The position numbers and the translations under genes are program-made. The notes under the pieces were generated by a model. The model had not been told where the DNA came from, searched no databases, and was given only the letters and a program-made list of their open reading frames with translations. 64,000 bases of DNA from assembly GCF_058153355.1 (NCBI RefSeq), contig NZ_CM177019.1, one strand, 5' to 3'. Positions 678 to 1,664 of the stretch are shown piece by piece (position 1 is the first letter of the stretch; each line of letters begins with the position of its first letter).

Positions 678-1664
678 TCAGGAGAAAACTTCGATACCGT
701 GCTTGCGCATGGAGGCCAGTCGATAGCGCAGGGCGCGCGGGGTAATGCCTAACAGGTCGGCGATTTTGCTGCGGTTGCCCTGATATTTGCGCATCAGGTC
801 GGCGATATATTGATACTGCGCGCTTCGTCCGTGCTGGCCTAAATCGCCGGTTTCGGCAATGTGGACGGCGGGCTGAACAGGCCATTGCAGTTCACTGTGG
901 TCAGCAATATCGGTGTCCGGCAGGCCTAATGCATCCGGGTAAATTACGCCGTCGCGATTTAAAATCATTCCCCGCTGAATGGCGTTTTCCAGTTGGCGCA
1001 CGTTACCGGGCCAGCGGTAATTAAGCAGCGCGCGGCGGGTAGATTCGGACAGGGTGATATTTTTCACCAGTACCGTGGAGTATTTTTTAATAAATGACTC
1101 TGCCAGCGGAATAATATCGTTCAGGCGTTCACGCAGTGGCGGCATGGTAATAGGGATAACCGCCAGACGATAATAGAGATCTTCACGAAAACGTCCGGCG
1201 GCAACTTCCTGATCCAGTTTTTTATTGGTGCAGGCAATCAGGCGAAAATTGAGTTTGATTTGTCGGTTGCTGCCTAATCGCTCAACCTGTTGTTCCTGCA
1301 AAACGCGTAATATTTTGGCCTGTAGCGCCAGCGGCATTTCACCAATTTCATCGAGTAATAAGGTGCCGTTATTTGCCAGTTCCATTTTTCCTGGCACGCT
1401 GGCAATTGCGCCGGTAAATGCACCTTTGTCGTAGCCAAATAACGTCGATTCCAGCATATTTTCCGGGATCGCCGCGCAGTTCACGCCGATATAGGGCGCG
1501 TTATCATTTTCACCAAAGGCTACGGTGTGAATATATTTCGCCACGCACTCTTTCCCCGCGCCGGTTTCGCCCTGAATCAGGACCGGCACGTTAAAGGCGG
1601 CGACACGCTTTGCCAGAGTAAAAGCGTTTATGCTGGAGGCGGCAGATGCAATAAGTTCAGACAT
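678..1664 (-). CDS. lafK: Sigma-54-dependent transcriptional activator (AAA+ domain plus C-terminal HTH, no receiver domain)
   Basis: Walker A GETGAGKE at residues 32-39, sigma-54 interaction domain, C-terminal HTH; position between lfiM and lfiE matches Flag-2 lafK. Confidence 0.7.
   Translation of the reverse strand: MSELIASAASSINAFTLAKRVAAFNVPVLIQGETGAGKECVAKYIHTVAFGENDNAPYIGVNCAAIPENMLESTLFGYDKGAFTGAIASVPGKMELANNGTLLLDEIGEMPLALQAKILRVLQEQQVERLGSNRQIKLNFRLIACTNKKLDQEVAAGRFREDLYYRLAVIPITMPPLRERLNDIIPLAESFIKKYSTVLVKNITLSESTRRALLNYRWPGNVRQLENAIQRGMILNRDGVIYPDALGLPDTDIADHSELQWPVQPAVHIAETGDLGQHGRSAQYQYIADLMRKYQGNRSKIADLLGITPRALRYRLASMRKHGIEVFS

Follow-up and report, generated by a model that had tools for sequence, protein, structure and literature searches.

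LafK of the Escherichia coli Flag-2 locus begins directly at its AAA+ domain: a conserved short form and an apparently stepwise loss of the receiver

LafK of Vibrio parahaemolyticus has reportedly been described as the lateral flagellar sigma-54 activator, by Stewart and McCarter in 2003 and by Kim and McCarter in 2004. In a survey of sigma-54 activators, LafK was placed in class Ic together with PspF and HrpR/S as a protein 'lacking a separate signal recognition domain' (Francke et al. 2011; PMC3162934), and the missing signal domain is already known at the level of this class. The statement in that survey cites the Vibrio protein, which keeps a degenerate receiver, and it is literally true for the enterobacterial LafK only. 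The gene order lfhAB-lfiRQPNM-lafK-lfiEFGHIJ is cluster 1 of the Flag-2 (lateral-type flagella) locus, which is known from E. coli 042 and was surveyed across Enterobacterales (PMC6993521); the LafK of strain 042 is ascribed to Ren et al. 2005, as cited in the same work. Expression of Flag-2 in E. coli has never been demonstrated to date, and in strain EC958 neither the Flag-2 flagellin LafA nor Flag-2 motility was detected under the conditions tested (PMC4637896).

Here we describe lafK in a stretch of 64,000 nucleotides of contig NZ_CM177019.1 (RefSeq assembly GCF_058153355.1), which is called the window as a whole. A first-pass annotation of the window had read the gene as a LafK-like sigma-54 activator, and both its LafK synteny and its position in the LafK clade bear this out: it is the known gene lafK, the sigma-54 activator of the E. 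coli Flag-2 cluster. It is the first gene of the lafK-lfiEFGHIJ operon, and its neighbours are lateral-type flagellar genes (Table 1). RefSeq annotates the same 987-nt CDS, between fliM/fliN-family and fliE genes, in E. coli relatives that are 95.6-98.2% identical over a 2-kb query. With this query, which spans lafK, the locus was found in 1271 of 5426 complete E. coli genomes at identities up to 98.2%, and Flag-2 is thereby present in about one quarter of the complete E. coli genomes, pandemic lineages included. The LafK synteny is common to E. coli, Citrobacter, Hafnia, Budvicia, Thaumasiovibrio and P. fragi, and in Thaumasiovibrio, P. fragi, Hafnia and Budvicia too, lafK lies directly before the lateral fliE, with the lateral fliM operon running the opposite way.

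Table 1 Features of the lafK locus, in positions of the window.
Feature	Position	Strand	Remark
lfiE (lateral fliE)	322..663	-	starts 14 nt past lafK stop; next in operon
lafK CDS	678..1664	-	328 aa + stop, 987 nt; ATG 1664-1662, TGA 680-678
Fis-type HTH_8 DNA-binding domain	714..815	-	residues 284-317, Pfam PF02954, E=8e-9
AAA+ lid (AAA_lid_14)	927..1133	-	residues 178-246, Pfam PF25601, E=6e-20
Sigma-54 interaction (AAA+) domain	1149..1649	-	residues 6-172, Pfam PF00158 Sigma54_activat, E=8e-64
Walker B D105-E106	1347..1352	-	read from sequence; invariant in alignment A1
GAFTGA sigma-54 contact loop	1407..1424	-	residues 81-86, read from sequence; invariant in alignment A1
Walker A GETGAGKE	1548..1571	-	residues 32-39, read from sequence
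lafK/lfiM divergent intergenic region	1665..2050	.	386 bp; searches for a domain remnant and for sigma-54 promoters negative
AT-rich block	1712..1775	-	64 bp, conserved between E. coli and Citrobacter (alignment A2); candidate lafK promoter/operator
In-frame TAA	1740..1742	-	26 codons (78 nt) before lafK ATG, closes the frame
BIME, two REP units in inverted orientation	1785..1875	.	inverted repeats I1, I3, I4
lfiM (lateral fliM)	2051..2902	+	first gene of the divergent lfiMNPQR-lfhBA operon; RefSeq annotation

The encoded protein starts directly at the AAA+ domain. The Sigma54_activat profile of Pfam is matched at positions 3-167 of 168 with only 5 residues ahead of it, and 31 residues precede Walker A, close to the 30 or so that had been estimated at first. 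As had also been claimed, no receiver or sensory domain is encoded: Pfam detects only the AAA+ domain, the lid and HTH_8, and no N-terminal sensing domain, including the FleQ domain PF06490, was matched at E<=0.01. In an alignment of 15 orthologues (A1), a comparison that had been suggested with LafK and FleQ homologues, Walker A (G32, E33, G35, G37, K38 and E39 invariant), GAFTGA, Walker B, the Arg fingers and the HTH are intact and without variation, and the Vibrio-type pseudo-receiver is absent from the window protein. Between the lafK alleles of E. coli, dN/dS is 0.08-0.15, and against Citrobacter it is 0.05 with synonymous sites saturated (dS >2). Because dN/dS stays at 0.05-0.15 against the E. 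coli and Citrobacter alleles, lafK is evidently a real gene under purifying selection and not a chance ORF.

The short form was also found in the orthologues. Among the 120 best homologues, full-length enterobacterial orthologues are 324-348 aa long and come from at least 12 genera; short LafKs were seen in Escherichia, Citrobacter, Leminorella, Enterobacter, Scandinavium, Pseudescherichia and Atlantibacter, and further in Siccibacter, Budvicia, Pantoea, Hafnia, Regiella, Pragia and Erwinia. Two long homologues in this set are read-through fusions with downstream flagellar genes. The only long close homologues with additional N-terminal domains (P0046, P0066 and P0078; 462-521 aa, 66-74% identity) were considered as LafKs bearing a receiver or ACT domain and were rejected as chimeric metagenome assemblies. 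Their N-terminal halves are those of E. coli NtrC (PRK10923, 764 bits), of TyrR (PRK10820, 809 bits) and of another activator that bears a receiver. In the chimeras (loci L003 and L004; contigs of 2.6-5 kb), the junction lies at about residue 160, in the conserved FREDLYYRL motif, and the identity to LafK, about 45% ahead of it, is near 100% past it, with 19-20 matching residues in most blocks of 20. Such chimeras between paralogues could mislead surveys of domain architecture.

The DNA upstream of lafK was inspected for a decayed N-terminal domain, as had been recommended in the first-pass annotation, using tblastn with 18 N-terminal domains of long LafKs and a profile HMM on six-frame translations. 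No N-terminal domain was found upstream of lafK in any of the six frames in the window, Citrobacter, Hafnia or Budvicia; the best upstream HMM score over the four genera was E=0.62 with at most 1.2 bits, and the Vibrio locus, used as positive control, gave E=4e-79 by tblastn and E=1e-48 by HMM. A conserved domain encoded upstream in an alternative frame, which had been named as the observation that would speak against a receiver-less protein, is seen in none of these four. The frame itself is closed. An in-frame stop had been placed 'just upstream', and the stop is there, but 'just' is slightly generous for a distance of 78 nt; none of the 26 codons from this TAA to the ATG is ATG, GTG or TTG, and the lafK frame is likewise closed by a stop in Citrobacter and Hafnia (each 2 codons ahead of the start) and in Budvicia (12 codons ahead). 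The BIME, which is present in the E. coli alleles and missing from the Citrobacter, Hafnia and Budvicia spacers, takes up about 90 bp, or about a quarter of the space where a decayed domain would have to lie, and most of the remaining spacer is unalignable with Citrobacter (A2). A 13-nt inverted repeat (1663-1675 and 1930-1942; ATAGGGTGAACAA / TTTTTCACCCTAT; 12 of 13 complementary) was also observed. Its arms flank about 280 bp of the spacer, including the BIME and the conserved AT-rich block, and the lafK-side arm extends over the A and the T of the lafK start codon; the repeat may mark the two edges of a former insertion, or may have arisen by chance.

The same spacer was read for the signals that would control lafK. 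The AT-rich block is the only part of the spacer that is conserved with Citrobacter, and on the lafK strand TTGTTT-N18-TATTAT can be read in it, which are matches to the sigma-70 consensus only; we infer from these features a candidate lafK promoter/operator. No sigma-54 promoter was found in the lafK/lfiM spacer, the best match being 7/12. This agrees with published work, in which lafK was reported to depend on sigma-70 in Aeromonas (PMC4481668) and the lateral fliM operon (fliM_L) to be independent of LafK in V. parahaemolyticus (PMC3930126). The conserved block was also read for sigma-28, and this reading was rejected, as the GCCG of the would-be -10 element is not conserved in Citrobacter. 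The 25 nt that lead up to the lafK start (1665-1689 in the window; 3975-4000 in the Citrobacter locus L010) contain no Shine-Dalgarno-like purine run, which suggests a weak or unconventional initiation of lafK translation.

Lateral flagellar clusters outside the Enterobacterales have the lafK synteny as well, but their LafKs are longer: 431-461 aa in Vibrionaceae and Shewanella, 468 aa in P. fragi, and 484-502 aa in a Cellvibrionaceae MAG. The protein cluster containing V. parahaemolyticus LafK (P0355, 90% identity) has lengths of 443-444 aa; it also holds 340-aa MotY proteins, presumably a clustering artefact from fused motY-lafK gene calls. The extra 115-190 residues of the long LafKs align with the FlrC/FleR-type receiver, but the residues of the phosphorylation chemistry have been lost. 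The acidic pair is DD in FlrC/FleR and EP, HL, TA or similar in the long LafKs; the phospho-acceptor Asp is replaced by Ser or Ala, or is deleted; and the conserved Lys of DYLxKPF is replaced by Arg, Gln, Leu or Ala. Pfam detects this receiver weakly (26.8 bits vs a cutoff of 30.2 in Thaumasiovibrio). The long LafKs of Vibrio, Shewanella and P. fragi carry a degenerate pseudo-receiver. Since they keep a receiver without the phospho-Asp and Lys, control by phosphorylation was evidently lost before the receiver domain itself. The first-pass annotation was right that LafK is regulated otherwise than by phosphorylation, and this is less informative than it seemed, since the long LafKs already lack these residues.

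The history of the domain was examined with a neighbour-joining tree (100 bootstraps) that was built on 317 columns of the AAA+-to-HTH region and for which the Citrobacter, Vibrio, Cellvibrionaceae and FlrC-type loci were taken from a search of genome contigs; among the matches listed, this search returned mostly unrelated bEBPs and one enterobacterial locus. The short enterobacterial LafKs form a single clade (bootstrap 100), which is sister to the long forms of P. fragi and Cellvibrionaceae (bootstrap 80), and this group in turn joins the long forms of Vibrio and Shewanella (bootstrap 79), so that support at the key nodes is moderate (79-80). REC-bearing FlrC-like proteins fall outside the LafK clade, which includes the V. 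parahaemolyticus-type LafK. On the simplest reading, an FlrC-type receiver became a pseudo-receiver, and a single deletion then removed it before the enterobacterial Flag-2 lineages diverged. Because of the orthologue lengths, the bare upstream DNA, the low dN/dS and the invariant motifs, the short LafK is the normal conserved form, ancestral in Enterobacterales, and not a product of decay. Other receiver-less proteins in the FlrC slot, from unrelated Gammaproteobacteria, fall elsewhere in the tree, and therefore such losses happened more than once. Two arrangements of this kind, which represent independent losses, were observed in MAGs (loci L006 and L007, 5240-7053; L005, 4663-7038). In a Pseudomonadales MAG, fleQ, a histidine kinase gene, a 350-aa receiver-less activator gene and fliE follow each other, and the kinase adjoins an activator with nothing to phosphorylate. 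In a Steroidobacteraceae MAG, two adjoining activators precede fliE, the second without a receiver.

Candidate targets of LafK were searched for in the rest of Flag-2, which lies outside the window and was examined over 49 kb in E. coli R32_14_1F (locus L090; 98.2% identical over the 2-kb query). No kinase gene was found in the Flag-2 cluster of this relative, and ISAs1 copies are present in it. The three best sigma-54 promoter matches in L090 are 12/13 and in the correct orientation, at 37 nt before lfgB, 32 nt before fliD (lafB) and 35 nt before a lysine-N-methylase gene. The random expectation for 12/13 matches is 0.31, and three are reached in 1% of random sequences. A palindrome, CGGAAA-N6-TTTCCG, lies upstream of each of the three promoters (7674-7690, 21697-21712 and 23233-23249 of L090), centred 47, 47 and about 57 nt before the -24 element, and the two spacings are about one helical turn apart. 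Only two other loose matches to the palindrome occur in the 49 kb, and the 64-kb window has no copy. We propose that these palindromes, as seen in one E. coli relative, are candidate LafK enhancer or binding sites. In the window, the only exact TGGCAC-N5-TTGC, an intragenic sigma-54 consensus at 55084-55098 (-), was observed in sense orientation inside a methyltransferase-like ORF (54662-55402, -) between rnhA-like and gloB-like genes.

From the protein architecture it had been suggested at first that LafK is regulated by a partner protein or by its expression level, and it is reasonable to infer that one of these applies. The reading that we prefer, at a probability of roughly 0.6, is that LafK is derived from FlrC, that its receiver was lost stepwise and then deleted once, and that the protein is active when made and controlled through its expression. 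LafK would descend from an FlrC/FleR-type flagellar response regulator, whose receiver in the LafK lineage would first have lost its phosphorylation residues, the resulting pseudo-receiver surviving in Vibrio, Shewanella, P. fragi and Cellvibrionaceae. A single deletion, in the ancestral Flag-2 cluster of the Enterobacterales, would then have removed the whole receiver and left a complete AAA+ motor with lid and HTH. With no domain to hold back or gate the assembly of the AAA+ ring, LafK should be competent and active once synthesised, and control would lie in the amount of LafK produced from a sigma-70-type promoter in the AT-rich block. Receiver deletion in NtrC1/DctD-type activators leads to constitutive activity, and the FlrC AAA+ domain forms rings by itself. 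The receiver of NtrC acts positively, and therefore the loss of a receiver does not always give constitutive activity. That LafA was not detected in EC958 shows that there is an off-switch of some kind, and Flag-2 may need a further signal.

A more specific version can be put forward tentatively. LafK may be a stepwise-dismantled, naturally constitutive bEBP, whose sole input is its own synthesis and which acts at three Flag-2 promoters via a promoter-proximal palindromic enhancer (47/57 nt). The CGGAAA-N6-TTTCCG enhancer would be a previously undescribed and unusually promoter-proximal candidate. If this is true, expression of lafK should by itself be enough to turn on the 'silent' Flag-2 of E. 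coli. An activator without input domain, a promoter that is not of the sigma-54 type and a palindrome at the likely targets make a simple experiment possible.

PspA gates PspF, HrpV gates HrpS and FleN gates FleQ, and LafK might likewise be gated in trans by a partner such as an anti-activator, in which case the expression level would not be the sole determinant of output. We regard this as rather unlikely. LafK shares the domain layout of PspF and HrpS and was assigned to the same class in the published survey (PMC3162934), and in V. parahaemolyticus the repression of surface-regulon genes by the degenerate EAL protein LafV requires LafK (PMC9303241), which hints at a functional link. However, no candidate gene adjoins lafK, whose neighbours are structural flagellar genes, and LafK is not an orthologue of PspF (236 bits vs 443 for TIGR02974). 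More doubtful is a role of the AAA+ domain itself as the sensor, where a ligand such as c-di-GMP would bind and block ring function by analogy with FleQ and FlrA. Both of these are among the solved-structure relatives of LafK, c-di-GMP is reported to inhibit FlrA (PMC3930126), and the lateral flagella of Vibrio are under c-di-GMP control (PMC9303241), but the closest relative of LafK is FlrC and not FleQ.

It is improbable that the truncated LafK is a crippled relic and the reason for the apparent silence of Flag-2 in E. coli. The EC958 results (PMC4637896) and the many Flag-2 loci with deletions or insertion sequences (PMC6993521) would fit such a relic, but the dN/dS of 0.05-0.15 out to Citrobacter, the invariance of all catalytic motifs and the fixation of the short form across the order argue against it; the order includes taxa with reported Flag-2 expression, such as Yersinia enterocolitica, according to a report cited in PMC11420993. 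That the lafK start was mis-called, or that a decayed or frameshifted N-terminal domain lies in the spacer, is hardly credible: the 386 bp are about the size of a receiver domain and no Shine-Dalgarno-like sequence precedes the ATG, but the TAA is followed by no start codon up to the ATG, stops recur in the other genera, the six-frame tblastn and HMM searches were empty with a Vibrio control at E=1e-48, and about 90 bp are BIME.

In conclusion, our analysis adds to what is known of LafK by tracing how its receiver was lost in steps, by excluding decay and by naming candidate enhancers and promoters, and the receiver-less protein does not overturn the current understanding. The long and short LafKs together offer a natural example of a response regulator that lost its chemistry first and its receiver next.

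Compared with the described systems, LafK is closest to FlrC. Among solved structures, FlrC (4QHS) ranks first with E=1e-74, followed by NtrC1 (8e-66), FleQ (2e-62) and PspF (2e-53), and residue 3 of LafK aligns with residue 16 of the AAA+-only crystal construct of V. cholerae FlrC (4QHS). FlrC/FleR holds the corresponding place ahead of fliE in polar clusters and is the source lineage in the tree, but it has a bona fide receiver (DD...D...T...K) and FlrC has the cognate kinase FlrB, whereas the LafK of the window has neither. PspF and HrpR/HrpS share with LafK an AAA+ domain followed by HTH_8 with no N-terminal module. The PspF/HrpS-like architecture described in the first-pass annotation therefore holds as layout and not as kinship: no NCBIfam equivalog model reached its cutoff for LafK, and PspF is not orthologous (TIGR02974, 236 bits vs a cutoff of 443; PRK11608, 206 vs 529). 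Because FlrC is closest, PspF is further down and these cutoffs are unmet, the likeness is convergent and the descent FlrC-like. Trans-inhibitors are known for PspF and HrpS, and none is known for the LafK of the window. FleQ/FlrA are likewise flagellar sigma-54 activators with a non-phosphorylated N-terminus and a related AAA+ domain, but they carry the FleQ domain PF06490, which the window LafK lacks, and fall outside the LafK clade. The LafK of E. coli 042 Flag-2 (CAH19120.1) is the same gene at the same locus; the window gene is an allele of it with nothing of substance different, and E. coli orthologues with 94-98% protein identity have 326-328 aa. The LafK of V. parahaemolyticus shares the position (the lateral fliE follows directly and the lateral fliM operon runs the opposite way), the clade, about 49% identity from AAA+ to HTH and the same sigma-54 logic. 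It differs in being 443-444 aa long, of which about 125 aa at the N-terminus form a pseudo-receiver that has no counterpart in the window LafK, and in Vibrionaceae motY is ahead of lafK in the operon, which is not so in the window. The N-terminal pseudo-receiver is a variable feature of the LafK group, and its absence is no bar to membership.
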